Assembly: GCA_044358545.1 (NCBI GenBank)
Contig: JBIKNS010000001.1
Location: 1 to 50,105 of the forward strand
Reading direction: 5' to 3'
Source of the DNA: Phycisphaerales bacterium
Lineage (GTDB): Bacteria; Planctomycetota; Phycisphaerae; Phycisphaerales; SM1A02
DNA: 50,105 nt
The stretch's first letter is position 1. Each line of letters starts with the position of its first letter. A program made the position numbers and the translations under genes. This document shows positions 4,116 to 47,369 of this stretch, piece by piece. The notes below the pieces were generated by a model, which did no database searches, had not been told where the DNA came from, and worked only from the letters and a program-made list of their open reading frames with translations.

Positions 4116-4278
4116 CGTGAGCATCTCTCCTGAGTCGCTTCCAACCGACTGGCCGCTCCGCACGACAGGCGAAGTGAAAGCCGCGAATCCGGGGCGTGTG
4201 GTGCCTGCCCGATCCCCGAATGTAGACCATGAACGGGGTTTCGCCCACACAGAGGTCCGGGAATAGGATGCCATCCCG

Positions 4279-29131: not shown

Positions 29132-29872
29132 CTAGCGCGCCTCGACCACATCGCCCTCCCGCAGGAGCGGCAAGGGGCATGATGCGGCATCGAAGTCGTC
29201 GGGTGCGTGAATGAGCCTGATCTTCCGGCGCACGTGCTCAGGCTGCGCCAGCAGGTCTGAGACCGGCGTATGGAAGGGGGGCGGACTGGTCTCGTGCACG
29301 ATGATGCCGCACCCGGCGAGCCAGTCCACATGGGCCTGCTCGAAGCCGGTGTCACTGCTCCACCCGATGCTCGACTCCCCATCGCGGAGGCGAAGCCCGA
29401 AGGTGGGGATCATGTGCGTGGTCTGGCGGCAGTCAACGTCGAGACCCGCGATGGTTGAGGGCTTCAAGGGGTCGAGCAGCCGGGGCTCGAAGTACTCATC
29501 AAGCGTGACGGTGCCTCCCTGGTCCATGGCAGGGGCCAGACGCTGCCACAGTCTCTCCATCACAGGGGGTGCGGCATGCACACGCGGTCTTGGTCGCGCA
29601 GGCTCCTGCCGCCGCAGGAGCCAATGCGTGAACCCGAACGCCTCCAGCCCGTTCACGTGATCGCCATGGAGGTGCGTGATGATCACGTCGAGGACGGACG
29701 GCACATCAAGCGGGAGCCCCGACTTCTCGCGCGCCTCGCGGAGCGCGCGGTGAATGGGATCCGGGCAGTCGATGAGCACGTGGCCCAGAGGACCTAGCAC
29801 CACGGCGGAACTGCCATAGTGCTGCGAGGAGAATGCATCCCCGCTACCGGTAATGACGATTCGCAGCGCCAC
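29132..29872 (-). CDS. MBL-fold metallo-hydrolase
   Basis: Track ORF 29132..30712 is heavily over-extended, running antisense to the next operon. The conserved part starts at VALRIVITGSGDAF (GTG at 29872), and an alternative ATG lies at 29974. The HxHxDH motif reads ITHLHGDHVNG. The exact start is uncertain. Confidence 0.65.
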   Translation of the reverse strand: MALRIVITGSGDAFSSQHYGSSAVVLGPLGHVLIDCPDPIHRALREAREKSGLPLDVPSVLDVIITHLHGDHVNGLEAFGFTHWLLRRQEPARPRPRVHAAPPVMERLWQRLAPAMDQGGTVTLDEYFEPRLLDPLKPSTIAGLDVDCRQTTHMIPTFGLRLRDGESSIGWSSDTGFEQAHVDWLAGCGIIVHETSPPPFHTPVSDLLAQPEHVRRKIRLIHAPDDFDAASCPLPLLREGDVVEAR

Positions 29873-29921: not shown

Positions 29922-29935
29922 GGATCCGCGGATCC
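29922..29935. promoter_or_regulatory. Perfect 14-bp palindrome GGATCCGCGGATCC in the divergent intergenic region upstream of the barrel/giant/cyclase operon; candidate operator
   Basis: Read directly from the sequence; the reverse complement is identical. It sits about 40 nt upstream of the proposed start at 29975. It overlaps a GG-N10-GC arrangement (GG at 29930-31, TTGC at 29940-43). Confidence 0.3.
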
Positions 29936-29974: not shown

Positions 29975-31492
29975 GTGCAGGGAGCGCCCCGCGCGACACG
30001 TCGGAGGCGGAGAGTGGTGGCGGCAGCTTCGGTGGCCGCGGGCTGTGTCGTCAAGGTTGCGTCCGGTCAGGGCACGGGCTTCGATGCGGCCCAGCTCCAG
30101 AGGCAGCTGAACGTTGAGGACGCCGAGCTGAGGCAGGCCTTCTTCTCCTCGACCCCGATTGCCGAGCGGCTGCTCGTCGACTACGGCGGGACGTTCCGTT
30201 ACGCCTTCAACATCATCCAGACGCCGCAGAGCCAGAACCAGATCCTGAATGTCTTCGACCTCCGTCTCTTCACGCGCGTGGAGCTTGACGGTGGCCACCG
30301 GTTCTTCGGGCGACTTCGCTTCCAGTACAACGCGTGGGACTACCTCGACACGCGGGGCATCGGCGTCGACTCGACCGAGGCTGACTGGCAGGACCCGATC
30401 GGCGAGATCTACTGGTACGAGTTCGACTACGCGGGACTGATGGCGGCGCAGACCGGGCAGCGTCCTGACTTCAACGTGAACCTCAAGGTCGGACGCCAGT
30501 ACGTGATCTGGGGGCAGGGGCTTTCGCTCAGCACCTACATGTACGCGCTGATGGGCGAGGTGAGCGCTGGCGACTGGAAGGTGGGTGCGCTCTACGGCGT
30601 GACCGCGGGCTCCGACACCGTGGACTGGGATCTCTCGAGGCCCGGATTCGACACCGACACGGACCGGATGTACTGGGGGGCGCGCCTGGAGTACTCGGGC
30701 TTCGCCGGGCACCGGCCCTACGTCTACATGCTCGGTCAGTCCGACGGGAATGCAGGTCAGGTGGCCGACCTTCCGCCCGGTCTGGGGACCTTCCCGACCG
30801 AGTTCAACTACCGCTCCTACTACGCGGGATTCGGGTCCACGGGATCGCTAGGCAGCAACTTCATCTACCGGGGCGAAGTGGTGTACGAGTGGGGAGCCAC
30901 CGAGACGGACCCAGTGGATCGCAACGACCCGACGCTCGCCGTGCCCCAGGAGATGGCGAGCGTGTCCGCGCTTGCGGGTCTCGCGGGTCTGACGTGGCTG
31001 ACGCGGGACACTGGCGACACGCGTGTGGACATCCAGGCAGCGATCGGTTCGGGCGACGACAACCGACTGGATTCGGGAAACACGTTCGGCGGAATCCCGC
31101 CCGGTCGCACGGACCATGCATTCAACTCGCTCGGATACGTTAACACCGGTCTCGTGCTTGCCCCGGAGATCACGAACCTCTTTTGCCCGTCGATCGGTGT
31201 CAGTACGACGCCATTCCCGGGTGTCGCGGAGCTTCGGCAGCTGCGCGTCGGCGCGACCATGTTCGGGTTCATGAAGGTCGATGGCGACGCGCCAATCTCG
31301 GTCCTCACTACGAACGGAACGAACCTTGTGGGTTCGGAGATCGACCTGAGCCTGGAGTGGCGCCTCCTGAGCGACCTCGACGTCAATCTGAGGTACGGTG
31401 CGTTCATACCCAATCAAGCGGCCTTCGCGGGACTCAACAACCAGGACAACATCCGTCAGTTCCTGTACGTGGGGGTGACGTATGCGTTCTGA
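29975..31492 (+). CDS. Outer-membrane beta-barrel protein, alginate-export (AlgE)-like family
   Basis: 505 aa. The N-terminus has an Arg-rich n-region and hydrophobic core (RRRRRVVAAASVAAGCVVKVASG). Amphipathic beta-strand patterning alternates throughout. A segment LKVGRQYVIWGQGLSLS resembles the Alginate_exp signature as I recall it. The protein ends VGVTYAF, the aromatic C-terminal residue typical of BAM substrates. Confidence 0.6.
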   Translation: MQGAPRATRRRRRVVAAASVAAGCVVKVASGQGTGFDAAQLQRQLNVEDAELRQAFFSSTPIAERLLVDYGGTFRYAFNIIQTPQSQNQILNVFDLRLFTRVELDGGHRFFGRLRFQYNAWDYLDTRGIGVDSTEADWQDPIGEIYWYEFDYAGLMAAQTGQRPDFNVNLKVGRQYVIWGQGLSLSTYMYALMGEVSAGDWKVGALYGVTAGSDTVDWDLSRPGFDTDTDRMYWGARLEYSGFAGHRPYVYMLGQSDGNAGQVADLPPGLGTFPTEFNYRSYYAGFGSTGSLGSNFIYRGEVVYEWGATETDPVDRNDPTLAVPQEMASVSALAGLAGLTWLTRDTGDTRVDIQAAIGSGDDNRLDSGNTFGGIPPGRTDHAFNSLGYVNTGLVLAPEITNLFCPSIGVSTTPFPGVAELRQLRVGATMFGFMKVDGDAPISVLTTNGTNLVGSEIDLSLEWRLLSDLDVNLRYGAFIPNQAAFAGLNNQDNIRQFLYVGVTYAF

Positions 31493-32147
31493 GGTACGCA
31501 CCGCCTGGACGATCCGATGTCGCGCGCAATGCGTCGCGGCCCTCTTTCTCTCCGGTTGTGTGGTGCTCGTCGGTGCGGGGTGCGATCGGCAACTCGCGCA
31601 GACCTCCGTCACGGACCGTTTCCCCCTACCGGAGCAGGAGCTCGACCATGCGGAGACCCTTGAGTCGACCGCCGTGGTGACGAACAACGACATGCTTCAC
31701 GGGTTCATCGTGTTCACCAGCTCGGAGGATCCGTGGACGACCTACGCGCAGCGGGTCCTTGACGCCCGATCAAGGGGATGGGTCCCTGAGGACTGGCGAG
31801 AGCCCGCGAACGAAAGCGCGACGGTGGGCCGGATGGCATCGATCGCCTCGCATATCGTCGAGATCAGGGGTGGGCTCTCGTTTATGATTCTCGGACCTAC
31901 CCCCCGATATGCCCTCCGCGAACTCATTTATCAGGACATTCTTCCGGCCCGAACCGAGAACCAGTCACTATCTGGGTTGGAGTTCACGGATTTCTTGAAC
32001 CGGCTCAGCAGAATGTCACGGTTGAAGGAGAGCGCGGCTGCGCGGGCAGCGTCCCGCGACAGCGCCGTGCCCCGTCCGCCATCGCTTCCGCCCTCGGGAA
32101 GGTCCGAACCGCCCTCGACAGACTCGACAGAAAAGACCTCGACATGA
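31482..32147 (+). CDS. Small lipoprotein of unknown function with a Ser/Pro-rich tail
   Basis: 221 aa. The N-terminus carries a lipobox (ALFLSGC). I recognise no domain. Its start overlaps the barrel gene by 11 nt, and its stop overlaps the giant gene's start (ATGA). The second half has visibly lower GC than its surroundings. Confidence 0.55.
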   Translation: MRSEVRTAWTIRCRAQCVAALFLSGCVVLVGAGCDRQLAQTSVTDRFPLPEQELDHAETLESTAVVTNNDMLHGFIVFTSSEDPWTTYAQRVLDARSRGWVPEDWREPANESATVGRMASIASHIVEIRGGLSFMILGPTPRYALRELIYQDILPARTENQSLSGLEFTDFLNRLSRMSRLKESAAARAASRDSAVPRPPSLPPSGRSEPPSTDSTEKTST

Positions 32148-35100
32148 GCAATCCGCAGAGCCACAGATTCATCGCGACCGCCTCAATGGCCGTCGCGTCG
32201 CTCACCATGCGTGTGGCCGAGTGTGCGTTGGCGCAGGAGACGTCGCCTGCCGATGCAGTGGCCGCAGCTGCGGCACCTGCGGGCACGGTTGTGCCCTCGG
32301 CCAACGCGACGCAGCTCCAGGCTCGCGTCATCGATGTGTCAGGCAAGGCGCGTTGGCGCGCGTCGCCGGATGGGGAGTGGAAGGATGCGGCGGTCAATGA
32401 CGACCTGTCGCCGGGTGCGGAGATTCGCACTGGCATGCGGTCGCGCGTGACGCTTCGCTTCCGCAACGCGACGGTGCTTGTCGACTCGAGCACGAACTTC
32501 GCGATTCCCACGATCGAGCAGGAAGGCGATGTGCTTCGCACGATTGCTGCCGTGCGCAGCGGACGCGCCGACTTCAAGGTTGACAAGGTCGGTCTGCAAA
32601 ACGACTTCAAGGTCGTGACGCCAAGCACGACGCTCGCTGTACGCGGAACGTCCTTCTCCACCATCTCGGGTCCGCTCAAGGGTGTCGAGATCGTGGGCTC
32701 GCGCGACAACGCGATCCGCGCGATCGAGGTGCGCTACGCCGCGCTCAACCAGACGGTCGAGATGTCTGGTGGCGCTGAGGCCAAGAGCAGCTCCGAGACG
32801 CCCAATCCCACCGAGAACGCGCTCAGTACGACATTCAATGCGCCGCAGTCTGGCATGGTGGCCAGCAAGGAGGAGGCGCAGCAGGGAGCGCTGAGCGGCA
32901 CGAGTGCCCCACAGACCCAGCGCCAGTCGACCACGACAGTCGCGGCGGTGGCGCAAGTCAGGCAGGACATCAACGCGGCTGAGCGTGGCGAGAGCGGCGG
33001 CAGCAGCAACCTGGCGCTCCTGATCGACATTGCGCGTGCGGCCGGGTTCCGTGGTGTGGCACAGGACGCGGGCGCGCTGCAGGCTCAGTCGCTGCAGGAT
33101 GTGCTGAATGCGGCACTTCAGGCGCAGGACCGTTTCGACGAGGCGACGGTAGCTGCGGATGGATTCGAGTCTGCGCGTGACGCAGCGATTGATGCGCTGG
33201 GGCAAGCGGATTCCGCGATGCAGGCGGCGCTCGCGTCGGCAGGCCTGGCGGTGTCCGGATCGCAGGCCGTGCGCAGCGAAGGTGCGTCTGCGCTCTCCGC
33301 CTTTGCGGCCCGCGAGGGATCTTCGGCGATCGCCGCACGCGTGTCCGCGGCGGGCGCGGCGGCACAGGCTGGATCAGGAGCCGCGGGCGAGGCCAGCGCG
33401 CACGTCGGGGGTGCGCAGTTGCGTGTGGCGGATGCGACGGCGCTCGCCGCTCCCTTGGCGGGACTGTCTGATGAGTTCAATCTGGCGCGCAGCGCGCTTG
33501 AGGCGGCCCGCGCAGCTATCGCTGGCCATACGGCAGATGTCGAGCAACTCCGGAGCGTGGCGCAGGCGGCGAGCGAGGCCGCGCAGGCGCTTGCGGCGGG
33601 TCGGAGCGTGCCGCAACTGACGCAGTCGGCGCTGCTTGCAGCGCAGGCGGCGGTTGAGGCTGCGCAGCGATTCGTGGAGGCCGGGACGGCCCGAGACCAG
33701 GCAGAGGGACTCGCAGCGGCAGCCCTCGAGCGTGCCCAGGAAATCGTCCGTACCGCGCTTGTGCAGGAGATCGAGGCTGCGAACTCCGCGCTCGCGTCCA
33801 CGGCGTCGGCAGTGTCTGCCGCAGTGAGCGCATCAGGGCAGGGTGAGGATGGGGCAGCGCTGCTCGACAGTGCGGTGAACGCCTTGCTTCAGGCCGAATC
33901 GGGCGAGCAGGGCGCGACACTCGCGGCCAGTGCGGCGTCCGATGCGAAGAACGCGGCCGAAGGCCGACGTCTTGCGGCGCAGTCTCAAGCTGATGTTGCG
34001 CGAAACCTCGGTGATCTGGTGAGCACCGAGCGTGCGTCTGCGCTGGTGGAGATGCAGAACGCGCTCGCCGCGCTGGAGCTGACGAGGGTGCACGCAGAGG
34101 CGACCTCCGAGTACGTACGAGCTGTTGACGAGGCGCTCACGCAGCCAACGCCCGATCTCGGGGCGGCGGGCACGGCCGCGACGCAGGCACTCGCGCAGGC
34201 AGATCTCGCGCAGGTCGAGTCGGGGTCGGCGACTCAAGCCGCGGGGCGCGCGGATGCGGCGGCCACTGTGGCGGGGGCGATTGCCGGATCCGAGGAGTTC
34301 ACCGGCTCCGAGTCCCTGTACGGCGATCTTGTGGATGCGATTGCAGGCGATGTCGCGGATGCGGGCGAGGCGCGCGATGATGCGTCCGCATCGGCATCGA
34401 CCGCAGCATCAGGCGCATCGGGAGCGGTGTCGCTGGCGGATCAGCTGGAGGCGGCATTCGGCTCGAGTGCACGCGACGCGGTGGCGCTTGCCGAGCGGCT
34501 GGGGCAGGATGCGGCGCAGCGCGCCTCGCAGGCCCAGCAGGCCTACGAGGATGCGCAACGCGCGTACGACGATGCGCTTTCCGCAGGACGTAGCTCCGCG
34601 CAGGTGACGGTGTGGGCCGCAGTGCGTGCGCTCGCCGCGCAGGCCCGGCAGGACGCTGACAAGGCGCTGGCTGATGCGCAGGTCGCACGAGACCTCGCGG
34701 CGGCTGCAGTTGAGCAGGCGCAGCAGGCCGACGAGCGGGTGGCCGTTGCGACTGGATCGTCCTTCGCTGCTGCGGCGCAGAACGCGGGCGCAGGGCAGCT
34801 GGTCCCGCTGCAGTCTGTGCTCGCGCTCGCTGAGGAGGCGCACGGGCACTTCGAGCAGTTGAGCACGGCCGCCGATGACTTTGCCTCGCTTCGATCGACC
34901 GCAGAAGATGCGCTCGCTGCGGCGCGTGCAGCGCTCGATGCGGCTGAGCAGGGTGCCCTCGATGCGCAGTCCGCGAACGAGGGTGTGAGCGACAGCGCGC
35001 GTGCGGCATTCCGTGCATTCGCATCAGGCGAGGCCGATGCATCCGTACGTGGTCACGTGTCTGCGGCCGCCGCTGATGGCAGTGCTGCCGCCGCGGCGGC

Positions 35101-38100
35101 AATGGCGGCAGGCGAGCGCGTCGCAGATGCTCAGTCCGGACTGGCTGGCGCCGAGAGCGCGACTGCGTTCTTGGTGGATGCTGCGGATCGTTTCGCGGCG
35201 GCGCGCGTGGCGCTCGACAGCGCGAGCGCCGCGATGACCAGTCCAGCGGCGCAGGTGTCCGACCTTCGCGATGCGGCGGTTGCGGCCAACGCTGCAGCCC
35301 AGTTGCTGGCTGGCTCCAGGAACATCCCGCAAGTGCAGCAGTCAGCGTTGGCGGCAGCGCAGGCGGCAGCGGAGGCGGTCCAGCGCGCGGTAGACGCTGG
35401 TGCGGCACGGGATGATGTCGCAGCCAAGGCTGCGCTCGCGCTCCTCCGTGCACAGTCCGTGGTGCGAGGTGCGATGGCACAGGAGATCGAGTCTGCGTCA
35501 CAAGGCGTGGCGGCCATGCAGTCGCGTCTGGCGGATGCATCTGAGGCGGCGGCGCAGGCACAGTCGCACATCAACCTGCTTGATCAGGCGATAGAGGGCA
35601 TGCTCGTGGCGCGCACGGGTGCCGAGGAGGCTTCTGCCGCGGCGAGTGCATCGCTGGCGTTCCAGGGACTGGCCGAGGGTCGGCGTGTGGCCGCTCAGGC
35701 GCAGGCCGACATCGCCGCGGGAGTTGGTGCGCTCGTGAGCAGCGACCGCGCCACAGCGCTCGCCGAGATGCAGCGGGCACTTGATGCGCTCGCACGCTGC
35801 GAGCTCAATGCGGCGGCAACATCAGCCCTTGCCAGTCAGGTGAGCCAGGCGCTCGGCCAGCAGTCGCCCGACGTCGGAGCGGCAGCGACAGGCGTGGCCC
35901 AGGCTGTCGCGCAGGCCGTGCTTGCGGATCACGAGGCAAGCCAATCGACGGCAGCAGCCGGCCGCGCGGACGCGGCGGCTCTGGCAGCCGCGGCGGCGGC
36001 ATCCGGCGAGGCACTCGTCCAGTCCGAGTCGCTCTACGCCAGCGCGGTGCAGGCCGCATCCGGCGACGTCGACGGTGCGGAGGCGGCACGTGACATCGCT
36101 GCCGATGCGGCACTCGACTCCGCAGGAGGTGCGGCGGCGGTCGCCACGATGGCGAGTGCGCTCGATGCAGCCTTCTCCCGGGATTCGGACTTCAGCTCCA
36201 GCGACGCGGGAGCCGCGCTTGCTGCAGCGCAGCAGCTTGCGGCTGATGCGGCGAATCGCGCGGCGGACGCCAACGCCGCGTACATCGCGGCGCAGGCGGC
36301 CTACGAGGGCGCGATGGCTGCGGGCCGGAGCTCCGCGGAGGTGACGGTGTGGGGGGCCGTACGTGCGCTCGCATCGCAGGCGCGGCAGGACGCTGATGCG
36401 GCACTCGTGGCGGCTGCCGAAGCGCGGCGCATCGCGAGCGCTGCGATGGCTGAGTCGATCGCCGCAGATGCAGCGGTGGTGAGCGCCGGCTTCCCGGCGA
36501 CGGGGTCGCGGTCTTCTGCCGCGGCCGAGTCGGCTCGTGCGTCGGCGGCGTCGGGCATGCAGGATGTGCTCGCACTGGTGCAGGCGCACCAGCAGGTGCT
36601 CGATGAGTCGGGAGCCGCGGTGGCTCAGGCACTCTCCACGCTCGGCAGCACGCTTTCGGCGACGGAGGTTGCGCAGAACTCGGCGAGCGGCGTTGCCGAC
36701 CGCCTTGCAGGTGCGCGGGACGCGATCATGTCATTCATCGCCGCGGATGAGGTCGGGGACGTTCCCGACTCGCAGATCGACGGCCTGCTCTCCTACCTGC
36801 TGAATGCGCGGAACGAGGGATTGGGTCTGGCGCTTGCTGCCGGCGCGAGTGCTGCGGACGCAGGGGCAGCCGTGGCCGGACATGCCGATGCCATTGCAGC
36901 CGCAGAGGCGGCCGCCGCGCAGTCGCAGGCCAGCGGCATTCAGGCGATTCTCGATCAGGTGGCGGCGTCCCTGGGGACGACCGAGGGCGACGCGAGATTG
37001 GCGCTGCTGCGCACGCTCAGGGACCGGGCGCTCGACCGGTCAGCGGATGTGTCCGGCAGCGCGGCTGAGACTGCCATCAGTGCTGCGGACGCGGGAAGTG
37101 CGCAGGCATCGTCCAGGTCTGCCTTGGCTGCGGCGGGGCTGTTCCCGACCTGGGGCGTTGGAGATGTCGATGCGTCATTCGGCAGCGATGTCGAGGGGGC
37201 AGCGGGCGCAGCTGCCGCGGCTGCCTTGAGTGCAAGCGATGCGGCACGTGGCGCGACGGTGCTTGTCGGCGTGCACGGTGCGGCTGCGGGTGCCGAGTCA
37301 TCAGTGCGTGCGAGCGAGAGCGGCATGGCTGCTGCGTACGAGGCGCGCGCCTTGGCGGAGGCCGCAGCAGACGTTGCTCGCTCAGCTGCGCAGCAGATGT
37401 CCGGAGCCGATGGCTCGGCGCGTGCGCAGGCATTGGCGTCGATCGCGCGGGTCCGCGGCCAAGTGACGGCCCTGGCTGCCCAGGCGAACTCCGACATCTC
37501 CATGGCTGGCAGTCGGCTCGATGCACTGCTGTCGCAGCTTGCGTCGGGCACGGTGGATGTGTCGGATGCGCGGGCTGGTCTCGCGGACGCCCAGGTGGCT
37601 GCATCTTCGGCGCGGGAAGGTGCGGACGAGGCTACGGCCGCCAGCGCTGGCGCCCTGTCGGTATCGGCGCAGTTCGAGCAGCTTGTGGCGTCGCTCGGTG
37701 TCGGCGGCGCGCAGGCAAGGGAGACGCTCGATCAGCTCGACCAGGTGCAGCTCGCAGCTGCGGAGTCGTGGCGCCAGTTGGCGGACGACCAGCGTGCGAT
37801 CGTGGACGCGCACGTCGCGTCCGTGCTCGCGGCTGCGGCAGGGGGCCAGAGCGTGGCGATCGCAGACCTCGCCTTCGCGGCGGCGTGGATCCGTCAGGTC
37901 ACGCTCGAGGAGTACCAGGCGCTTCAGACGTCGATCGCACTCGCGCAGGCTGCTCGTGCGGACGCGGCAGGCGCCGTAGGCGAGTTCGAGGCGGCCGCGC
38001 AGTCTGCTGCGGCACCGGTGGTGAGCGCTGCAGAGGATGCGGTCGCGGCCGCCGATGCGTTCCTGCGGCAGGTCATGGCGATCCAGATCGAGGTGGCCAT

Positions 38101-39793
38101 CGGCGAGCGTGCGATCGACGCTGAAGTCGCACGTGTCGCTGCAGGTGCGGTTGAGGTGCAGGTCGCGTCGCGCGTCACGCAGGTGGCCGCGACGGTGACG
38201 GCGATGCGCGATGCCATCGCCGAGTATCAGGGTGCCACGGCCTCGATGTCTGCGGCCTTGGATGCAGCCAACGCAGCCCGCGGCACGGCGGAGTCGAGGC
38301 TGCAGGATCTGGAGCTGGCGCTGTCATCTGCCGATGCGCGGCTCACGTCACTGAGGGTGAGCTTGGGCAACGGCGACCGTGCATCGGCCGGAAGCGACGG
38401 CACTGCGATCTCGGATGCCGCATCCGGGGCGGGCACCCTGGCGCAGGCCGCGGACGCAGCCCGCGCCGATGCACTTGCCGCACTTGCCGGGATCGACGCG
38501 TTGGGCGCGTCTGCGGCAGGTGCGGTTCTCCAGCTCGACGCGCAACTGCCCGACGCGGCTGGGCACCAGTTTGCGCTCTCATGGCATCAGGAGCAGGCTG
38601 AGGCTGCGCAGAATGATGCGTCGGCTGCGTCAGATGGCGTGGATGCAATGGTGGCCGAGGCGGGTACGGCGCGCAGTGGCGCGCTAGGCGCCCACGCACT
38701 CGCGGCAAGCGGCGAGGCCCTGAGCCGTGCCAGTGCCGCGCTCGCGGGGATTCTGTCTGCAGGCGGATCGCTTGAGAGCGCGCTCTCCGATGCGCAGTCG
38801 CTCGATCGCGGCCTCGCTGGATCGGTGGCGGCGCAGGCTGCGGACGTCCGAGACTGGGTGTCGAGCCTCGACTACGGATCGTCATCGATTCCAGCGGTCG
38901 TGGCCGACCGGGTGGTCGCCATGTCCGGCGTCGCGCAGGGGGCGATCGGCGCCTACGACGCGCGTACCGCTGCGCTCGCAGGCCGCGAGGCTGCCGAGCA
39001 GGCGCGTGACCGCGCGATCGGCGCCAACTACGTGACACTGGGCGCACTTGAGTCGCACCAAGCGGCCATGGTGGGGGTGAACCAGGAGTACGGCACAGCA
39101 CTCGATCAGCGCGGCGTCGCTGCAGTGGAGTGGATGAACGCAAGCCTCTTCCGCATTGAGGCGGGCTACTGGCTGCAGCAGACGCTCAGTTACGTCGAGG
39201 CATCGGACGCATCGTCTGCGGCATGGGCCGCCAGCTCGGCGGACGAGGGCGCGACCGGCGCTGAGAATGCCGCGGGCCGGGCTGACTACGCAGCGGCGCT
39301 CGCGGAGGCGGCAGGAGAGCGCGCAGTCGAGTGGGCCGGGATCAGCGCAACAGCGTTCGAGGTCGCCAGTGCGGCGGCATCGCAGGCCGAGAGCGAGCGT
39401 GACGCCGCGGCAGGGCTTGCCGCCGACGTCGTCGTGGCCGGTGGCGCATCGCAGAGCTTTGCAGCCGCTGCCGAGCAGTTCGCAGCGATTGCCGCGACTG
39501 CGGCTGCGGGGGACGCATCTGCGTTCGCTCGGCAGGCGCGCGACCAGGCGGTGGCGCAGATCGTGCTGGCGGAATCGGCACGGGATGCGGCACAGGCTGC
39601 TGCGGCGAGCGCGCGTAGCCACGCCGGAAAGATCGTCTTCGGCGCCGTCGCCGCGAAGGCCAATCAGACGGTTGCCCTCGCCTCGCAGGCCCGCGACTAC
39701 GCCGATGCCGCGCTCGTCCAGGCGGTTGAGGCGCGCACTGACGCCAACTCCGCGGTCGTTGCGGCGTCGTCGGCGGCGGGCGGCACGAACTGA
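32144..39793 (+). CDS. Giant (2,549 aa) secreted protein: signal peptide, FecR domain, then about 2,300 aa of alanine-rich, proline-poor, repeat-containing region predicted to be helical
   Basis: An uninterrupted 7.65-kb frame. The N-terminal signal reads MAVASLTMRVAECALA-QE. A well-formed FecR-type domain spans roughly aa 60-190 (nt about 32321..32714): GAEIRTGMRSRVTLRFRNATVLVDSSTNFAI...VRSGRADFKVDK...FKVVTPSTTLAVRGTSFS. The remainder is dominated by A/Q/S/D/E/R/L/V. About one residue in three is Ala in a 100-aa stretch I counted, and Pro, Cys and aromatic residues are rare. The start is ATGA-coupled to the upstream lipoprotein gene. Confidence 0.8.
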   Translation: MSNPQSHRFIATASMAVASLTMRVAECALAQETSPADAVAAAAAPAGTVVPSANATQLQARVIDVSGKARWRASPDGEWKDAAVNDDLSPGAEIRTGMRSRVTLRFRNATVLVDSSTNFAIPTIEQEGDVLRTIAAVRSGRADFKVDKVGLQNDFKVVTPSTTLAVRGTSFSTISGPLKGVEIVGSRDNAIRAIEVRYAALNQTVEMSGGAEAKSSSETPNPTENALSTTFNAPQSGMVASKEEAQQGALSGTSAPQTQRQSTTTVAAVAQVRQDINAAERGESGGSSNLALLIDIARAAGFRGVAQDAGALQAQSLQDVLNAALQAQDRFDEATVAADGFESARDAAIDALGQADSAMQAALASAGLAVSGSQAVRSEGASALSAFAAREGSSAIAARVSAAGAAAQAGSGAAGEASAHVGGAQLRVADATALAAPLAGLSDEFNLARSALEAARAAIAGHTADVEQLRSVAQAASEAAQALAAGRSVPQLTQSALLAAQAAVEAAQRFVEAGTARDQAEGLAAAALERAQEIVRTALVQEIEAANSALASTASAVSAAVSASGQGEDGAALLDSAVNALLQAESGEQGATLAASAASDAKNAAEGRRLAAQSQADVARNLGDLVSTERASALVEMQNALAALELTRVHAEATSEYVRAVDEALTQPTPDLGAAGTAATQALAQADLAQVESGSATQAAGRADAAATVAGAIAGSEEFTGSESLYGDLVDAIAGDVADAGEARDDASASASTAASGASGAVSLADQLEAAFGSSARDAVALAERLGQDAAQRASQAQQAYEDAQRAYDDALSAGRSSAQVTVWAAVRALAAQARQDADKALADAQVARDLAAAAVEQAQQADERVAVATGSSFAAAAQNAGAGQLVPLQSVLALAEEAHGHFEQLSTAADDFASLRSTAEDALAAARAALDAAEQGALDAQSANEGVSDSARAAFRAFASGEADASVRGHVSAAAADGSAAAAAAMAAGERVADAQSGLAGAESATAFLVDAADRFAAARVALDSASAAMTSPAAQVSDLRDAAVAANAAAQLLAGSRNIPQVQQSALAAAQAAAEAVQRAVDAGAARDDVAAKAALALLRAQSVVRGAMAQEIESASQGVAAMQSRLADASEAAAQAQSHINLLDQAIEGMLVARTGAEEASAAASASLAFQGLAEGRRVAAQAQADIAAGVGALVSSDRATALAEMQRALDALARCELNAAATSALASQVSQALGQQSPDVGAAATGVAQAVAQAVLADHEASQSTAAAGRADAAALAAAAAASGEALVQSESLYASAVQAASGDVDGAEAARDIAADAALDSAGGAAAVATMASALDAAFSRDSDFSSSDAGAALAAAQQLAADAANRAADANAAYIAAQAAYEGAMAAGRSSAEVTVWGAVRALASQARQDADAALVAAAEARRIASAAMAESIAADAAVVSAGFPATGSRSSAAAESARASAASGMQDVLALVQAHQQVLDESGAAVAQALSTLGSTLSATEVAQNSASGVADRLAGARDAIMSFIAADEVGDVPDSQIDGLLSYLLNARNEGLGLALAAGASAADAGAAVAGHADAIAAAEAAAAQSQASGIQAILDQVAASLGTTEGDARLALLRTLRDRALDRSADVSGSAAETAISAADAGSAQASSRSALAAAGLFPTWGVGDVDASFGSDVEGAAGAAAAAALSASDAARGATVLVGVHGAAAGAESSVRASESGMAAAYEARALAEAAADVARSAAQQMSGADGSARAQALASIARVRGQVTALAAQANSDISMAGSRLDALLSQLASGTVDVSDARAGLADAQVAASSAREGADEATAASAGALSVSAQFEQLVASLGVGGAQARETLDQLDQVQLAAAESWRQLADDQRAIVDAHVASVLAAAAGGQSVAIADLAFAAAWIRQVTLEEYQALQTSIALAQAARADAAGAVGEFEAAAQSAAAPVVSAAEDAVAAADAFLRQVMAIQIEVAIGERAIDAEVARVAAGAVEVQVASRVTQVAATVTAMRDAIAEYQGATASMSAALDAANAARGTAESRLQDLELALSSADARLTSLRVSLGNGDRASAGSDGTAISDAASGAGTLAQAADAARADALAALAGIDALGASAAGAVLQLDAQLPDAAGHQFALSWHQEQAEAAQNDASAASDGVDAMVAEAGTARSGALGAHALAASGEALSRASAALAGILSAGGSLESALSDAQSLDRGLAGSVAAQAADVRDWVSSLDYGSSSIPAVVADRVVAMSGVAQGAIGAYDARTAALAGREAAEQARDRAIGANYVTLGALESHQAAMVGVNQEYGTALDQRGVAAVEWMNASLFRIEAGYWLQQTLSYVEASDASSAAWAASSADEGATGAENAAGRADYAAALAEAAGERAVEWAGISATAFEVASAAASQAESERDAAAGLAADVVVAGGASQSFAAAAEQFAAIAATAAAGDASAFARQARDQAVAQIVLAESARDAAQAAAASARSHAGKIVFGAVAAKANQTVALASQARDYADAALVQAVEARTDANSAVVAASSAAGGTN
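33094..36556 (+). repeat. Two tandem, diverged copies of a 1.71-1.75-kb (about 571-583 aa) coding repeat inside the giant gene; a third, more degenerate unit starts at about 36557
   Basis: Unit starts align: LQDVLNAALQAQDRFDEATVAADGFESA (nt about 33094), LQSVLALAEEAHGHFEQLSTAADDFASL (about 34807) and MQDVLALVQAHQQVLDESGAAVAQAL (about 36557). Internal landmarks recur in the same order in units 1 and 2. They are: AGRSVPQLTQSALLAAQAA / GSRNIPQVQQSALAAAQAA; AEGRRLAAQSQADVA / AEGRRVAAQAQADIA; AAGRADAAA; SESLY; and AGRSSAQVTVWAAVRALAAQARQDAD / AGRSSAEVTVWGAVRALASQARQDAD. By eye, about half the positions are identical. Confidence 0.7.
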
Positions 39794-39835
39794 GCCCGAC
39801 TGGCGCGATCGCGAGTTTGCTGCGACCATGCGCCA

Positions 39836-42553
39836 GTGAGGATCCTGCGTAGCACAGCATTCGTCACCGGCATGGTCGCGACCCTCGCGGTGTGGCTGGC
39901 CGCGGCGGTCGGCGCATTCGACAAGCTTGAACTGCGAAGCGAGGATTCGCGCTTCCAGTCCTCGGCGCGACGGCAGGAGCCGCTGTCCGAGGAGATCGCC
40001 CTCGTCGCGATCGATGACGGTGCGCTCGCGTCCATCGGACGATGGCCGTGGCCGCGCACGCTGCTGGCATCAGCGATCGACGAGCTTGCGCGCGCTGGTG
40101 CGCGCACCGTTGCGCTCGACTTGCTGCTGAGCGAGCCTGACGCCGCAAACGCCGGAGCTGACGAGTCACTGGCCAGAGCTCTGGCGGATCGCACGATGGG
40201 CGGAGCGTCCCTTCGCGGGGTCGTGGGCGTCAGCACAGAGGAGGACGAGCGTCTCAAGGGACCGTGGCGGCTTCCTGGCGGCGATCACGAACTGAAGCTG
40301 CTCCTCGACGCGCTTGGCGAGGCGATTGACATGGAGCCCGCGGACGCCGCCGCGAAGGCGGGCCTCTCCACAGCGCGCCGCGAGTCCTTCCTTGCGCAAC
40401 CGATCAGGTTCAAGCAGATGGCGGCATGGCGCGTGCTGCGCAAGCTCATGGCGCCCGGGACGATGCCGTCCATGGACGACTTCATGCTGGTCCTCACGAG
40501 CGGGCGCACCAACCTCGGGGAGTTCGATGCGCGCGTGGCGGTCGACGAGATCTATGAGCGAGGTCGGGCATGGCACGCGCTCAAGCCCAAGCTCGGCGCT
40601 CCGATTGGGGGGGGCGCGCAGGACATCTTCGGCGAGGTGTCCGGCGCGGAGTCCTTCTCGATCGAGCCCTCCGTGCCCGTGCTTGCGGAGGCCGCAGCGG
40701 GTGTCGGCGTGGTCACAAGCGATGGATATGACGAGGACGGGGCAAAGCGTCGGAGCAAGGCAATCTGGCCGGTGCCAGGGGGCAGATGCGCGCAGTTCGG
40801 GCTCGCCGCCGCGGCAACCCACCTCGGGCTGCCTCCCGGCAGCATTGTCCAGGAGGAGCGCCGCATCGCGGTCGGCGACGTCGAGCTTCCGGCCGCCGCC
40901 GGCACCATGCTGCTCGACTGGCCGTCGTCGACGTTCGAGAGCTTCGCCGACTTCTCCGATGACCCTTCGGCGAGGCGGCCCACCATCTCGATCGCCGCGC
41001 TGATCAGCCTCTCGCGCCAGCGCACGGTGCTCGCGGGCATCGAGCGGGAGCGTGATGAGGCACTTGGGCGCGTGATGGCGCAGGTGGTCGTTGACGCACG
41101 CGCGCGCACGGACGCGGCGGTGCGCGCATCCGAGGCCCAGCGGCTGAGCGACCTCCGCATCGATGACCAGATCCCCCATGCCATTGAGCCGGACGTTGCG
41201 CGGTTCCTCGAGCTCGAGGAGAGCGCGTCCGATGGCGCTGCGCGCCTGGCCGAGGCATCGCAGAGGCTCGAGTCGATGGTGAAGGATCGACTCGTGTTCG
41301 TCGGCTGGATCGCCTCCGGTGCGCTGGCGGATCAGGTCACCACGCCGTACGGCCCACGCACGCCGGGGGTGTTCGTGCACGCGGTTGCCGCAGACATGGT
41401 GATTGGCCGTCATTCGCGCGCAGTCGCTCCCGCGTGGGTGTCTCCGACAGGCATCGTGGTGCTTGGTCTCGCGGCGTCGCTGGCCGCGGCGCTGCTGGGC
41501 GGATTCTGGTCGTTCCTCGTTACGGCGGGCATTGTCGGGCTCTGGTGGTTTGTCGCGGCACGCATGGCGTTCGACGAGTGGCGGGTGCTTGTGCCGCTGG
41601 TGGCTCCTGGCTCGTCGCCCGTGGTCGCGTGGGCGGCGAGCACCGCTGCGGTTGCGGTGTCGAATGCGCGCGACCGCGCCCGGATCACGCGGCAGTTCGC
41701 GGCACGGGTCTCGCCGCAGCTTGTCGAGCGACTCGCAGGGGATCCAGATGCGCTCTCGATGACCGGAGAGGAGCGCGAGATCACGGTGGTGTTCGGCGAT
41801 CTCGCGGGGTTCACGTCGATCGCGGAGTCGCTCGGCGGTCCTGGCGTCGTGGCCACGCTGAACCTCTACTTGGGGCGGCTTGCGGACGAGCTGGTCGATC
41901 GCGGCGCATACGTGAACAAGTTCCTTGGCGACGGGTTCATGGCGTTCTGGTCGGCCTTTGGCGCCGAGCCCGAGCAGGAGCGGCTCGCGGCGGAGAGTGC
42001 GGCGGCATGCCAGGCTGCCGTGGAGGAGCTCGGCTCGAGGGTGGAGCCTGGAGCGCCGCGCATTTCGCTGCGCATCGGCATCGCCACAGGTATGGCAGTC
42101 GTGGGTGACTGCGGCGCGCCGCCGCGACTCAACGACTACACCGCAATCGGCGACGTGGTGAACCTCTCGGCGCGGCTGGAGAGCGCGAACAAGCAGTTCG
42201 GCACGAAGGTGCTCATGGATGGCGCCACGCGCAGGGGCATCGACCGCATCGCGGCACGCACGCCTGGGGCGCAAGTGCCGCGCATGCGCTGCCTCGGCCA
42301 GGTCGTGGTGGTCGGACAGTCGAAGCCGATCGACCTGTACGAGGTGGTCGACGCATCCGCGAAGGACGAGTGGATCGCCGACACCGAAGGTGCGGTGCGC
42401 GCCTTCCGTGAGCGTGACCTTCCGGGCAGCCGGGTGCTCTGGCAGGCGTTCGAGTCGAGATGGGGTGCATCGAAGCTCTCGCAGGCATACATCGCAGCGA
42501 TCGACGCCGGTGACGGCGCCGAGGATGGCGTGCTGCGTCTGCGCGCGAAGTAG
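39836..42553 (+). CDS. CHASE2 sensor domain-containing class III adenylate/guanylate cyclase
   Basis: 905 aa. An N-terminal TM is followed by CHASE2 (IALVAIDDGALASIGRWPWPRTLLASAIDELARAGARTVALDLLLSEPD...) and then a cluster of TM helices at about aa 500-600. The cyclase catalytic domain contains REITVVFGDLAGFTSIAE, NKFLGDGFMAFW, LRIGIATGMAVVGDCG and GDVVNLSARLES. It lies 42 nt downstream of the giant gene on the same strand. Confidence 0.9.
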   Translation: MRILRSTAFVTGMVATLAVWLAAAVGAFDKLELRSEDSRFQSSARRQEPLSEEIALVAIDDGALASIGRWPWPRTLLASAIDELARAGARTVALDLLLSEPDAANAGADESLARALADRTMGGASLRGVVGVSTEEDERLKGPWRLPGGDHELKLLLDALGEAIDMEPADAAAKAGLSTARRESFLAQPIRFKQMAAWRVLRKLMAPGTMPSMDDFMLVLTSGRTNLGEFDARVAVDEIYERGRAWHALKPKLGAPIGGGAQDIFGEVSGAESFSIEPSVPVLAEAAAGVGVVTSDGYDEDGAKRRSKAIWPVPGGRCAQFGLAAAATHLGLPPGSIVQEERRIAVGDVELPAAAGTMLLDWPSSTFESFADFSDDPSARRPTISIAALISLSRQRTVLAGIERERDEALGRVMAQVVVDARARTDAAVRASEAQRLSDLRIDDQIPHAIEPDVARFLELEESASDGAARLAEASQRLESMVKDRLVFVGWIASGALADQVTTPYGPRTPGVFVHAVAADMVIGRHSRAVAPAWVSPTGIVVLGLAASLAAALLGGFWSFLVTAGIVGLWWFVAARMAFDEWRVLVPLVAPGSSPVVAWAASTAAVAVSNARDRARITRQFAARVSPQLVERLAGDPDALSMTGEEREITVVFGDLAGFTSIAESLGGPGVVATLNLYLGRLADELVDRGAYVNKFLGDGFMAFWSAFGAEPEQERLAAESAAACQAAVEELGSRVEPGAPRISLRIGIATGMAVVGDCGAPPRLNDYTAIGDVVNLSARLESANKQFGTKVLMDGATRRGIDRIAARTPGAQVPRMRCLGQVVVVGQSKPIDLYEVVDASAKDEWIADTEGAVRAFRERDLPGSRVLWQAFESRWGASKLSQAYIAAIDAGDGAEDGVLRLRAK

Positions 42554-42574: not shown

Positions 42575-43915
42575 CTAGGCAAGCCGCCGGACGATGACGG
42601 CGGTCCGGTCATCCGCCGTGGAGGGCGCCTGGCTGAACGAGAGCGCGCCAGCGTCAAGGGCGTCGAGGATCTCGGAGCAGGGGCGGTCGCGGAGCGTGCG
42701 CACCACGTCAAGCACCGCGGGGTCTCCCCACTGCGTCCCGTCCGGGCTCATGGCCTCGTAGTAGCCATCCGTGAGCACAAGAAGCAGGTCGCGCGGACTC
42801 AAGTTGATCCGCTGCGACTGTTCGCACGGGAAGCCGAAGTCGATCACGCCGAAGGGTGGCGCATCCGTGTCGATGGGCTCAAAGCGATCTTCCGCATAGC
42901 GGTACACGAAGAGCGGTCCCTGGCCGGCACTGAAGCTCTCGACCGAGTGCGTGCGCCCATCGAGAAGCCCGAGCCACGCGGTGACGAAGCGCCCTGAGGG
43001 CAGGTCCTGGCAGAGCTGGTTGTTGACCTCGCGTGCCGTGTCGAGCAGTCCGGTGCGCAATCGCGCGCCAACGCGCGCCATGCCACGCGCCTGCATCGAC
43101 GAGAGTGCCGGTCCCACCCCGTGGCCTGTGGCGTCGGCGAGAAGGAACATCACGCGTGCCGCGGCGGCCCCTTGCGCAACCACACCACTGTCGTCGATGC
43201 CGATGCAGTCGTACGCGTCACCGCCGCAGTCCTCGGCCGGCGTGCTGCGCGCCGCAATCTCGTACCCGTCGACCTGCGGAAGCGCGGTGGGGAACGATCC
43301 CTGCTGGATCGTGCGCGCCACATTCATCTCCTCCTCGAGCTTGGCGCGCGCGAGATGGTCCTCGATCAGCGCTGCACGGCGCAAGGCGACAGCGGCTTGC
43401 GCGGCAATGCCCCGCGCGAGCCACTCGTCACGGCCGTCAAAGGGTCCGCTCGCCTTGTTGAGCACCTGCGCCACGCCGACGAGCGCCCCCTCATGGTCCA
43501 TCAGGGGAACGGCGAGGACGCTGGTCGTGCGGTATCCGGTGCGCTGGTCCACGGACCGGTCGAACCGCGCGTCGGCGTACGCGTCAGGAATGTTGACGAT
43601 CTCGCGCGATTCCGCCGCAGCGCCTGCGATGCCGCGGTTGGCAGGGATCCTGATCACCTGTCCGCCGCCGCCGATGCCGTGCGCGACGTGGATGACAAGC
43701 TCGTGCGTCGCGGCGTCGTACGTGAACACGCTGGCCCGGTCCGCGGTGAGGAGGTCGCGGAGCGCATCGATGATGATGCTGAGCACCTGCGACAGGTCGG
43801 ACGACTCGCCAAGTCGCCGCGAAATGGCGAGCAACTTCTCGAGTGCGGCGATCGCGGACAGCTCGGCGCTGGCCGGCTGCAGCACGGTCCCATGACCAGT
43901 GCGCTGTGCGCTCAT
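42575..43915 (-). CDS. GAF domain-containing PP2C/SpoIIE-family serine phosphatase
   Basis: Track ORF 42575..43987, with the start set to the ATG at 43915 (MSAQRTGHG), which forms an ATGA overlap with the upstream gene's stop. The GAF region reads LSQVLSIIIDALRDLLTADRASVFTYD...VAQVLNK. PPM/SpoIIE motifs are present: CGGDAYDCIG, FLLADATGHGVGPAL, LLVLTDGYYEA. Confidence 0.85.
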   Translation of the reverse strand: MSAQRTGHGTVLQPASAELSAIAALEKLLAISRRLGESSDLSQVLSIIIDALRDLLTADRASVFTYDAATHELVIHVAHGIGGGGQVIRIPANRGIAGAAAESREIVNIPDAYADARFDRSVDQRTGYRTTSVLAVPLMDHEGALVGVAQVLNKASGPFDGRDEWLARGIAAQAAVALRRAALIEDHLARAKLEEEMNVARTIQQGSFPTALPQVDGYEIAARSTPAEDCGGDAYDCIGIDDSGVVAQGAAAARVMFLLADATGHGVGPALSSMQARGMARVGARLRTGLLDTAREVNNQLCQDLPSGRFVTAWLGLLDGRTHSVESFSAGQGPLFVYRYAEDRFEPIDTDAPPFGVIDFGFPCEQSQRINLSPRDLLLVLTDGYYEAMSPDGTQWGDPAVLDVVRTLRDRPCSEILDALDAGALSFSQAPSTADDRTAVIVRRLA

Positions 43916-46245: not shown

Positions 46246-46328
46246 GGTGAAAGGTGGCCCTGGGCGCAGGTGCAGTGACTGGTTGCCGGCGCGGTAGCGC
46301 AGGTTGCGGATGGTACCCTTGCAGCCCC

Positions 46329-47369
46329 ATGACACAGTTTGCCGAGCGTTCACTGACTTGCGTGGCCGCGTGCCTTGCGCTTCTCGCTGGCACGTGCGCC
46401 GAGGCGCGCTCTTCCGAGGGTGCCGGGAACCCGGCAGGTGCGCCCGTCGGCGCAGCCGCGGACACGTCCGGCACGGATGTGCTGACGCTCAAGAGCGGAC
46501 GCAAGCTCGAGGGCGAGGTGCTCAAGCGCACGGACAAGAGGGTGTGGCTCGATGTGGGCGCCGATGTGCTCGTGTTCGACATGTCCGATGTGGCTGATGT
46601 CACCAACGACGCGTCGGGAGCGCCGGTGCGCACCGTCGAGCAGTCGCTCTACTCGGTTGCCGTTGACCTTCCTGAGCTCAGCCCCAAGGAGCACGCGAAG
46701 ATCATCGGTCCTGCGGTGATCAAGGTGTCCACGCCGTCAGGCCTTGGCTCTGGAGTCATCATCCACCGAGACGGGTTCGCGATCACGAACGCGCACGTGG
46801 TGCAGGGCGAGACCAATCTCCGCGCCACGATCTGGGTGGCGCAGCCCGACGGTTCGCTCAAGCGCACTGAGCTTGACGATGTGGAACTCATTGCGGTGAA
46901 CAACCAGATCGACCTCGCGCTCGTCAAGCTCAAGAGCCCCGACGGATCGCCCTTCCCGATTGCGCCCATCGTTGGCGCCGAAGGCCTGGAGGTCGGTCAG
47001 CCGGTCTTCGCGATCGGCAACCCGCTGGGTCTCGAGCGCACACTTACGCAGGGCGTCATCTCGACCACCAGCCGGAACTTTGACGGCCTGACCTACATCC
47101 AGACTGACACGCCGATCAATCCGGGAAACTCCGGCGGGCCGCTCTTCAACACCCGTGGCGAGGTGATCGGCATCACCAACATGGGTATCCGCGGCGGTGA
47201 GGCGCTCGGCTTTGCGATCCCGGCCCGCTACGTCACCGACTTCATCCGCAATCGCGAGGCGTTCGCGTACGACAAGAACAACCCCAACTCGGGCCACAAC
47301 TACCTGCAGCCGCCGCCGCGCAAGGACTTCAATGCGCCGCCGCAGCTCAGGGACTCGAGCTCGCGCTGA
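46329..47369 (+). CDS. Trypsin-like serine protease (S1C, HtrA/DegP-like catalytic domain); no PDZ domain recognisable
   Basis: Track ORF 46254..47369, trimmed to the ATG at 46329 (MTQFAERSLTCVAACLALLAGTCAEA, a signal peptide). The catalytic triad context is ITNAHVV, IDLALVKL and NPGNSGGPLF. Confidence 0.8.
   Translation: MTQFAERSLTCVAACLALLAGTCAEARSSEGAGNPAGAPVGAAADTSGTDVLTLKSGRKLEGEVLKRTDKRVWLDVGADVLVFDMSDVADVTNDASGAPVRTVEQSLYSVAVDLPELSPKEHAKIIGPAVIKVSTPSGLGSGVIIHRDGFAITNAHVVQGETNLRATIWVAQPDGSLKRTELDDVELIAVNNQIDLALVKLKSPDGSPFPIAPIVGAEGLEVGQPVFAIGNPLGLERTLTQGVISTTSRNFDGLTYIQTDTPINPGNSGGPLFNTRGEVIGITNMGIRGGEALGFAIPARYVTDFIRNREAFAYDKNNPNSGHNYLQPPPRKDFNAPPQLRDSSSR

Follow-up and report, generated by a model that had tools for sequence, protein, structure and literature searches.

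Why should the genes for an outer-membrane barrel, a lipoprotein, a giant secreted protein and a membrane-bound cyclase lie packed end to end on one strand of a planctomycete chromosome? The genes in question belong to a Phycisphaerales bacterium (SM1A02; assembly GCA_044358545.1, contig JBIKNS010000001.1) and were studied within a stretch of 50,105 nt, the whole of which is called the window below. This is chromosomal DNA with a GC content of 64-71%, and its nearest relatives are freshwater Phycisphaerales metagenome-assembled genomes, the closest of them from Lake Mendota and Baikal lineages. On balance, we believe that the four genes probably make up a chromosomal cassette for envelope-to-cAMP signalling in freshwater Phycisphaerae; in it, as we infer by analogy, an event at the outer membrane would be relayed through a periplasmic FecR domain to an adenylate cyclase. 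The genes are as follows:

29975-31492, + strand: barrel gene, 505 amino acids (aa), outer-membrane β-barrel of the Alginate_exp (AlgE-like) family
31482-32147, + strand: lipoprotein gene, 221 aa, from a family without a name
32144-39793, + strand: FecR-head giant gene, 2549 aa, secreted, with a giant tail
39836-42553, + strand: CHASE2 cyclase gene, 905 aa, predicted membrane adenylate cyclase

Conservation of the four-gene cassette

The four open reading frames (ORFs) lie exactly where a preliminary description, made from the DNA letters alone, had placed them, the genes overlapping by 11 nt at the first junction and by 4 nt at the second and being separated by 42 nt at the third, and its domain calls (Alginate_exp, FecR, CHASE2 and Guanylate_cyc) were all reproduced by Pfam. 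The start of the barrel gene is ambiguous (29975 or about 30014). The giant ORF is neither a chance run nor an assembly artefact, since the probability of 2549 stop-free codons, computed from a base composition of ~70% GC, is ~4e-22 and since an independent ENA assembly contains an intact orthologue of 2550 aa with 94.4% identity from end to end; its integrity in other assemblies, on which the earlier proposal had been made to depend, is therefore secure.

Conservation was assessed by scanning one genome per species with a profile of the FecR head, which returned 68 loci that, where a lineage name is given, mostly belong to Phycisphaerales, Phycisphaerae or Planctomycetota (the other labels found on some of them are probably mis-assigned). 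All four genes were found in 42 of these 68 species-level loci, with order and strand identical in 42/42, and a further 17 contain the barrel, lipoprotein and head genes before the contig ends short of the cyclase; true orphan heads were confined to two loci. Identity to the window proteins across the 42 full loci ranges over 36-93% for the barrel, 35-81% for the lipoprotein, 41-84% for the head and 32-86% for the cyclase, and even distant loci, with flanks that bear no relation to the window's, keep the cassette. The genes thus behave as one unit, as had been proposed, and the gene-neighbourhood comparison that the preliminary description had set beforehand as capable of refuting the idea found the cassette conserved in relatives. 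Every full cassette that we found lies in a metagenome-assembled genome of an uncultured organism, which is a limitation for experimental work.

In some loci the lipoprotein gene is separated from the cyclase gene by two FecR-head paralogues in tandem (L013:8565-11216, L014:8026-10854, L016:11953-14550, L030:6835-9564 and L061:8981-10777). These extra ORFs were considered as free-standing tails, a reading that was rejected because each has its own FecR head; each paralogue comprises its own signal peptide, head and tail.

The four gene products

The cyclase carries the clearest indication of what the cassette might produce. Pfam detects CHASE2 at aa 15-546 (3.8e-38) and Guanylate_cyc at aa 647-787 (7.5e-11), and hydropathy and Pfam together place a first transmembrane helix at aa 10-28, some 500 aa of periplasmic CHASE2 sequence after it, hydrophobic residues in a block at aa ~529-610 and, beyond these, the catalytic domain, which is of class III. 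The closest structural relatives by sequence are Synechocystis Cya2 (2w01/6fht) and Pseudomonas aeruginosa CyaB (3r5g). Six catalytic residues (D, K, D, T, N and R, i.e. the two metal-binding Asp, the specificity Lys and Thr, and the transition-state Asn and Arg) are all present and invariant in 46 aligned cyclases. At the position of the Lys, which is part of the motif VNKFLGDG, the alignment shows Glu in the guanylate cyclase Cya2 and Lys in a Cya2 engineered into an adenylate cyclase. The second specificity residue is Thr (DYTAIG), as in CyaB. A Lys/Thr pair confers ATP specificity in class IIIb cyclases such as CyaB and Spirulina CyaC. Because all six catalytic residues are kept together with this pair, we predict that the protein is an active adenylate cyclase with cAMP as its product.

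The barrel matches Alginate_exp (PF13372; 2.6e-9, 36.8 bits against a cut-off of 25.2) and ends in ...TYAF, the terminal Phe being shared by 58 of 59 aligned homologues, whose N-termini are of the Sec type. We found 121 homologues, and all those with a source name are from Planctomycetota/Phycisphaerae. The lipoprotein has a lipobox Cys at aa 34, conserved in an alignment of 30 homologues, followed by a conserved all-helical core (aa 36-175) and a Pro-rich disordered C-terminus. Neither the window protein nor any of its 43 homologues, the few with source names being Phycisphaerales or Planctomycetota, contains a Pfam domain, and judged by these profiles the lipoprotein represents a new family. 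Searches of PDB sequences with the lipoprotein, the barrel, a profile of the FecR head and one unit of the giant tail yielded nothing useful. The export signals noted earlier for the first three products (the TYAF terminus, the lipobox Cys and the signal peptide of the giant protein) are common to their homologues. The barrel and the lipoprotein constitute a tight pair.

An AlphaFold2 model of the lipoprotein (mean predicted local distance difference test, pLDDT, of 86) is all-helical, and its top 11 Foldseek matches in the PDB are all trimers of S-layer homology (SLH) domains, with probabilities of 0.96-1.0 and otherwise marginal statistics (E 0.05-0.26, TM 0.37-0.57, rmsd 6-9 Å). By sequence, no Pfam SLH match appeared at E<=10 and a profile search of PDB sequences gave no SLH protein; Pfam likewise detected no TPR repeats in the lipoprotein to E<=10. 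SLH trimers bind pyruvylated cell-wall polymers, and the modelled fold tentatively suggests an SLH-like cell-wall-binding role for the lipoprotein.

The giant protein consists of a small conserved head and a very long tail, and can be divided as follows:

32144-32233, + strand: Sec signal peptide (aa 1-30, cleavage at ALA|QE, read from the sequence)
32312-32833, + strand: conserved head domain (aa ~57-230), enclosing the Pfam FecR match
33047-34762, + strand: tail repeat unit 1 (aa 302-873)
34763-36478, + strand: tail repeat unit 2 (aa 874-1445)
36479-39793, + strand: remaining acidic Ala-rich helical tail, from periodicity and composition

The FecR match itself spans aa 93-172 (5.5e-6, 27.2 bits against a cut-off of 24). 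A-x-A sites equivalent to the predicted cleavage site occur in homologues, and the protein has no membrane anchor besides its signal peptide. Only the head is conserved (33 invariant columns in the head alignment). A search of 1.84 billion representative proteins with the head returned 166 clusters at E<=1e-30; among the best 150 matches, whose lengths range from ~120 aa (fragments) to 2540 aa, a single one has its head elsewhere than at the N-terminus. A FecR-head paralogue of 399 aa was also seen as an orphan outside the cassette in one relative (L052:9863-12570), beside a convergent gene for a protein with HD-GYP-type HD_5 and PilZ domains, and this neighbour may link the head family to c-di-GMP signalling.

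The tail is unusual in composition and variable in length. The protein contains 31% Ala overall and 33% in its tail (2249 aa), which has 266 Asp and Glu against 124 Arg and Lys, 14 Pro, a net charge of about -142 and hardly any Pro or Lys. Its hydrophobic residues recur most strongly with a period of 3.5 residues (z = 10.8 versus shuffled sequences), and in an AlphaFold2 model of one 572-aa unit nearly the whole chain is helical, individual helices reaching 80 residues; the confidence of this model is low (pLDDT 54) and its packing unreliable, so that it was used for secondary structure alone. Pfam gave no match on the tail unit at E<=10, TPR included. Units 1 and 2 are in tandem and share 47% identity over 572 aa with a single 7-aa indel, while the 572-aa unit occurs just once in the 1976-aa protein of a relative; as judged from these repeats, the tail expanded partly by tandem duplication of this unit. 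The 49 distinct complete orthologues of the FecR-head protein range in length from 307 and 311 aa through 1183-1207 aa (a dozen species) and 1707-1744 aa to 1987, 2025 and 2549 aa, the short ones finishing in a Gly/Pro-rich disordered stretch and the long ones carrying an Ala-rich tail. Tails also evolve faster than the rest of the cassette: between the window and the locus L005 they share 61-67% identity, compared with 84% for the head, 86% for the cyclase and 93% for the barrel, and in the ~1200-aa class the median identity of tails is 42% versus 72% for heads, although length is steady within clades. Given this range of lengths and this mode of evolution, the giant size is a lineage-specific extreme of a hypervariable extension and no defining feature of the cassette, contrary to the place that the preliminary description had given to the Ala-rich tail. 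The tail likely serves as a spacer or ligand-binding arm outside the core relay.

A different giant was observed in a relative (L075:1-8803), where the gene for a protein of >3218 aa with a two-partner-secretion (TPS) domain and DUF5649 directly precedes that for an additional CHASE2 adenylate cyclase, which is shorter (681 aa); the two genes adjoin a full barrel/lipoprotein/FecR/CHASE2 cassette. Giant secreted filaments beside CHASE2 sensors may be a recurring theme.

Flanking genes, the proposed relay and its alternatives

The cassette as a unit exceeds its four genes, with one gene added upstream and one downstream:

29132-29872, - strand: Apyc1-like hydrolase with a metallo-β-lactamase (MBL) fold, in divergent orientation to the barrel gene, candidate cyclic nucleotide (cNMP) phosphodiesterase; start at 29872 or 29929
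42575-43987, - strand: GAF-SpoIIE (PP2C) phosphatase (Pfam), convergent with the cyclase gene and 21 nt from its stop, candidate cNMP-regulated output

The MBL protein carries the HxHxDH motif (THLHGDH), exceeds the Pfam cut-off for Lactamase_B_2 and matches Apyc1 (PF23023) at 3e-11; its best PDB sequence match by phmmer is Apyc1 itself (7u2r, 1.2e-19), over nearly its full length (aa 2-229). The gene is present and divergent from the barrel gene in 44 of the 47 loci with room for it, and in relatives it has been called independently on the minus strand, with 246 aa. On the opposite strand, an ORF at 29211-29660 (+ strand, 149 aa), with tblastn matches in many relatives, was rejected as an antisense shadow of the MBL gene; such a shadow illustrates an annotation trap in GC-rich DNA of this kind. 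A scan for promoters and terminators was uninformative in this GC-rich DNA. The MBL/barrel intergenic region contains a perfect 14-bp palindrome, GGATCCGCGGATCC (29922-29935), which probably is no conserved operator, as an exact match was found in 0 of 78 related loci.

On the other side, a GAF-SpoIIE gene occurs within 700 bp downstream of the cyclase gene in 27 of the 30 loci with room. In two distant loci (L061 and L080) it is retained and flipped to the cyclase strand, and in L075 a protein with a cNMP_binding domain takes its position. With genes for a candidate phosphodiesterase and a GAF-SpoIIE phosphatase nearby, the cNMP reading becomes stronger. Further out, the window encodes two large FG-GAP/ASPIC-type repeat proteins (4279-6756, + strand, and 43912-46353, - strand), one of them with TPR repeats; the gene at 43912-46353 is syntenic with the cassette in many relatives and gone from more distant loci. 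A protein at 2442-4292 (- strand) combines a di-haem oxidoreductase (DHOR) domain with a dockerin type I domain, an unusual pairing. Mur ligase, Ddl and LptF/G are also encoded in the window, and peptidoglycan and an outer membrane are therefore to be expected in the host.

Put together, these parts suggest a relay in which the barrel and the lipoprotein would form the outer-membrane end and the periplasmic FecR head would contact the CHASE2 domain, either relieving or imposing control over the cyclase. A contact of this sort is suggested by Sinorhizobium meliloti, whose CHASE2 cyclases CyaK and CyaD1/D2 respond to extracellular protein only with the help of NsrA, an outer-membrane protein in which FecR, TPR repeats and a barrel are combined (PMC7529298, PMC13001267), and where a plasmid named pCyaD1-deltaCHASE2 makes cAMP constitutively (PMC5498481). 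The Apyc1-like phosphodiesterase would remove cAMP, and the GAF domain of the PP2C phosphatase might read it, at least in part, probably feeding a partner-switching circuit.

Several observations weigh against this envelope-to-cAMP reading, whose functional part is drawn from gene order and analogy. In one relative (L081:4861-10577) an Alginate_exp barrel and a lipoprotein homologue are joined to a 954-aa CHASE2 cyclase, the lipoprotein and cyclase genes overlapping, and no FecR head was detected anywhere in the 15-kb locus, so that FecR is dispensable in at least this relative; a secreted Pro/Ala-rich protein of 232 aa follows the cyclase there, and the contig runs out at a STAS gene. The cultured Phycisphaerae species Humisphaera borealis (CP063458, L073:10001-12340) has an isolated pair of barrel (33% identity) and lipoprotein (33% identity, E 6e-25), with FecR and CHASE2 genes absent from its vicinity. 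The four-part composition proposed earlier, present in the 42 full loci, is incomplete in these two. The residue at position +2 of the lipidated Cys (31581-31586, aa 34-35, GC|DRQ) is Asp in the clade of the window and Q, M, E or A in others. In Escherichia coli Asp at +2 is a Lol-avoidance signal leading to inner-membrane retention; by this rule, which may not be that of the host, the window lipoprotein would stay in the inner membrane. For the flanking genes, the score of the MBL protein against Apyc1 PF23023 (43.7) is below the curated cut-off of 50, and a close relative has a DUF2142 gene downstream in place of GAF-SpoIIE. In addition, much of the linkage of both genes falls within a wider synteny (citrate synthase, rhomboid, FG-GAP), outside which only seven loci speak for MBL and 10 for GAF. 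A strict NKFDE expression matches the GAF domain in only seven of 32 homologues; the motif N-x5-F-x3-DE is largely conserved in its N, F and DE, with the Lys often replaced, and because of this variable Lys it provides weak evidence and no proof of cNMP binding.

Could the cassette instead be two independent modules, a general outer-membrane unit (a porin or exporter with a cell-wall tether) that merely lies beside a self-contained FecR/CHASE2 pair? The isolated pair of H. borealis is what this would lead one to expect, proteobacterial FecR/CHASE2 pairs work without an Alginate_exp barrel, and the loci all come from one class, in which some synteny is inherited. Yet order and strand are the same in 42/42 loci, down to 36% barrel identity and with rearranged flanks, and the coding regions overlap. 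Moreover, L081 couples the barrel and lipoprotein to a CHASE2 cyclase by overlapping genes in the absence of FecR, which ties the barrel pair to the cyclase itself. We therefore give the modular explanation only a small chance of being correct. A similarly small chance attaches to the idea, developed from the preliminary description, that the giant protein is a surface fibre, an antenna or adhesin whose tail passes through, or is anchored by, the barrel and whose periplasmic head reports pull, binding or loss to CHASE2, much as RcsF is threaded through OmpA/OmpC/OmpF. The tail fits surface exposure, being acidic, nearly free of Pro and Lys and fast-evolving; AlgE-type pores carry polyanions, the Gly/Pro-rich disordered ends of the short orthologues could thread through such a pore, nothing beyond the signal peptide would anchor the protein in a membrane, and L075 has its other CHASE2 cyclase beside the filamentous TPS-domain giant. 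We found, however, no precedent for protein export via an Alginate_exp barrel, the clade-steady tail length (1183-1207 aa in a dozen species) fits a periplasmic spacer equally, and L081 retains barrel, lipoprotein and cyclase without a FecR-tail protein. Improbable, in our view, is the more elaborate model in which the acidic coiled-coil tail would be threaded through, or exported by, the AlgE-like barrel and the SLH-like lipoprotein would fix the complex to the wall, giving a surface antenna that each clade tunes to its own length (300-2500 aa) and whose periplasmic FecR end switches the cyclase. If true, tail threading would be a new route of protein display via an alginate-export-type porin, and the antenna would offer a first mechanistic handle on what CHASE2 senses.

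The similarity of the barrel to AlgE raises the further question of whether it exports an exopolysaccharide, with the giant protein as a periplasmic scaffold like AlgK/AlgX and cAMP regulating production only. The barrel does exceed the Pfam Alginate_exp cut-off, and helical repeat regions are joined to export barrels in BcsC, PgaA and PelB, as TPR and barrel are combined in NsrA-like proteins. Genes for a glycosyltransferase, polymerase or copolymerase are nevertheless absent in or beside the cassette, in the window as in relatives, and by Pfam neither the lipoprotein nor the tail contains TPR, which makes polymer export very improbable. A Pycsar-type anti-phage cyclic-nucleotide defence, built from a cyclase and an Apyc1-like enzyme, is hardly tenable and was rejected. 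The PADLOC PycC models do match the catalytic domain (5.8e-26), and the MBL protein encoded next door is similar to Apyc1, an enzyme that counters Pycsar, but the PycC models share the class III fold and a match is thus expected for any such cyclase. The other cassette proteins have no PADLOC match, there is no cNMP-activated transmembrane or TIR effector, the cyclase combines the purine-type Lys/Thr with an extracytoplasmic sensor, and the setting is that of the core chromosome (Mur ligase, Ddl, LptF/G, citrate synthase). The envelope-to-cAMP relay accordingly remains the reading that we favour.

Relation to known envelope signalling systems

CHASE2, a sensor domain of wide distribution that is exposed outside the cytoplasm, has no established ligand, and FecR has been described beside it in the Burkholderia BiofilmReg operon and in P. 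aeruginosa PA4035/PA4036 (PMC5192318). In Campylobacterota a cluster comprises a CHASE2 adenylate cyclase, a cAMP phosphodiesterase, an outer-membrane protein with a FecR domain and a TPR protein (PMC9239204). Together with the Ensifer and S. meliloti loci described below, these reports bear out the statement in the preliminary description that FecR genes recur beside CHASE2 sensors. Hence the FecR/CHASE2 association is already known; noteworthy here are the new lipoprotein family, the linked genes for a candidate phosphodiesterase and a GAF-PP2C protein, and the unusually plastic giant tail.

The closest parallel is NsrA/CyaK; our picture of the NsrA architecture combines what the orthologue in Ensifer and S. 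meliloti shows with the legend to S7 in PMC7529298. The NsrA-type gene of Ensifer and S. meliloti encodes ~1190-1218 aa with FecR, TPR repeats and a C-terminal region whose last residues, ...KVRF, are of the outer-membrane-protein type, in agreement with the barrel that the legend places at aa 600-1200, and sits immediately upstream of a CHASE2 cyclase gene. In both systems a FecR-domain gene lies immediately 5' of the gene for a CHASE2 class III cyclase with identical catalytic residues, an outer-membrane barrel belongs to the system and a long helical region follows the FecR domain. The output of NsrA/CyaK is cAMP and its outer-membrane part is required for sensing, whereas for the cassette a cAMP output is predicted from the catalytic residues. 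Differences are equally plain: while FecR, TPR and barrel are fused in NsrA (~1200 aa), the barrel of the cassette is a separate Alginate_exp gene, its FecR protein has no TPR by Pfam and bears an acidic Ala-rich tail of varying length instead, a conserved lipoprotein is added, and the CHASE2 region is ~250 aa longer. The linked genes differ as well, being those for the Apyc1-like phosphodiesterase and GAF-PP2C in the cassette and that for the Clr regulator in NsrA/CyaK. Pfam gave no match to the NsrA-like C-terminus at E<=10, and an hhalign comparison of the 59-sequence barrel alignment with the Ensifer NsrA-like C-terminus, which had limited sensitivity with a single-sequence template, returned a probability of 0.1. 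As the window barrel is without detectable similarity to the NsrA-type barrel, the parallel is a functional, non-homologous one, a point that also tells against our reading.

The other systems each share a part of this arrangement. The Campylobacterota cluster, compared here by its published gene neighbourhoods alone, likewise groups a CHASE2 cyclase, a phosphodiesterase, a FecR envelope protein and a helical-repeat protein and has been proposed as one pathway; its FecR lies within an outer-membrane protein, unlike that of the cassette, and an Alginate_exp barrel, a cassette-type lipoprotein and GAF-PP2C are unreported for it. BiofilmReg and PA4035/PA4036 have a secreted FecR-domain protein directly 5' of a CHASE2 sensor, as does the cassette. 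BiofilmReg also includes a small envelope protein (DUF4136) and LysM on its FecR protein, to which the SLH-like lipoprotein may tentatively be compared, and unlike the cassette its output is a two-component histidine kinase, with no outer-membrane barrel and no long tail. In FecA-FecR-FecI of E. coli, too, a FecR-type periplasmic domain relays an outer-membrane event to an output in the inner membrane or cytoplasm, as is proposed for the cassette, whose FecR protein by contrast lacks a cytoplasmic anti-sigma domain and a transmembrane helix and has a cleavable signal peptide; there is no gene for an extracytoplasmic function (ECF) sigma factor in the cassette or its flanks, and the barrel is not a TonB-dependent receptor. 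With AlgE/AlgK the cassette shares a barrel above the Alginate_exp cut-off and a lipoprotein gene paired with it, but the lipoprotein is devoid of TPR, polymer synthesis genes are absent nearby and the neighbours are signalling genes.

The requirement of rhizobial CHASE2 cyclases for the FecR-containing outer-membrane protein NsrA is the only functional clue to the input of CHASE2. In the cassette, which belongs to a distant phylum, the same logic appears to have been rebuilt with other components: the AlgE-like barrel is separate, the lipoprotein is new and the FecR protein is free. This argues for FecR and an outer-membrane barrel as general upstream partners of CHASE2, and the comparison is a useful handle on what CHASE2 senses. 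With its own candidate phosphodiesterase and candidate cNMP reader, the cassette would lend itself to reconstitution as a small cAMP circuit complete in itself; nature has in effect already made the deletions, in the form of orthologues graded in tail length (307-2549 aa), a variant lacking FecR and another reduced to barrel and lipoprotein, and H. borealis could be a tractable host for the barrel/lipoprotein pair. The earlier term 'undescribed' holds only in part: the combination of barrel, FecR and CHASE2 cyclase follows a logic known from S. meliloti NsrA/CyaK. By analogy, the cassette looks like a split and rebuilt version of the NsrA/CyaK envelope-to-cAMP sensor rather than a wholly new kind of system.

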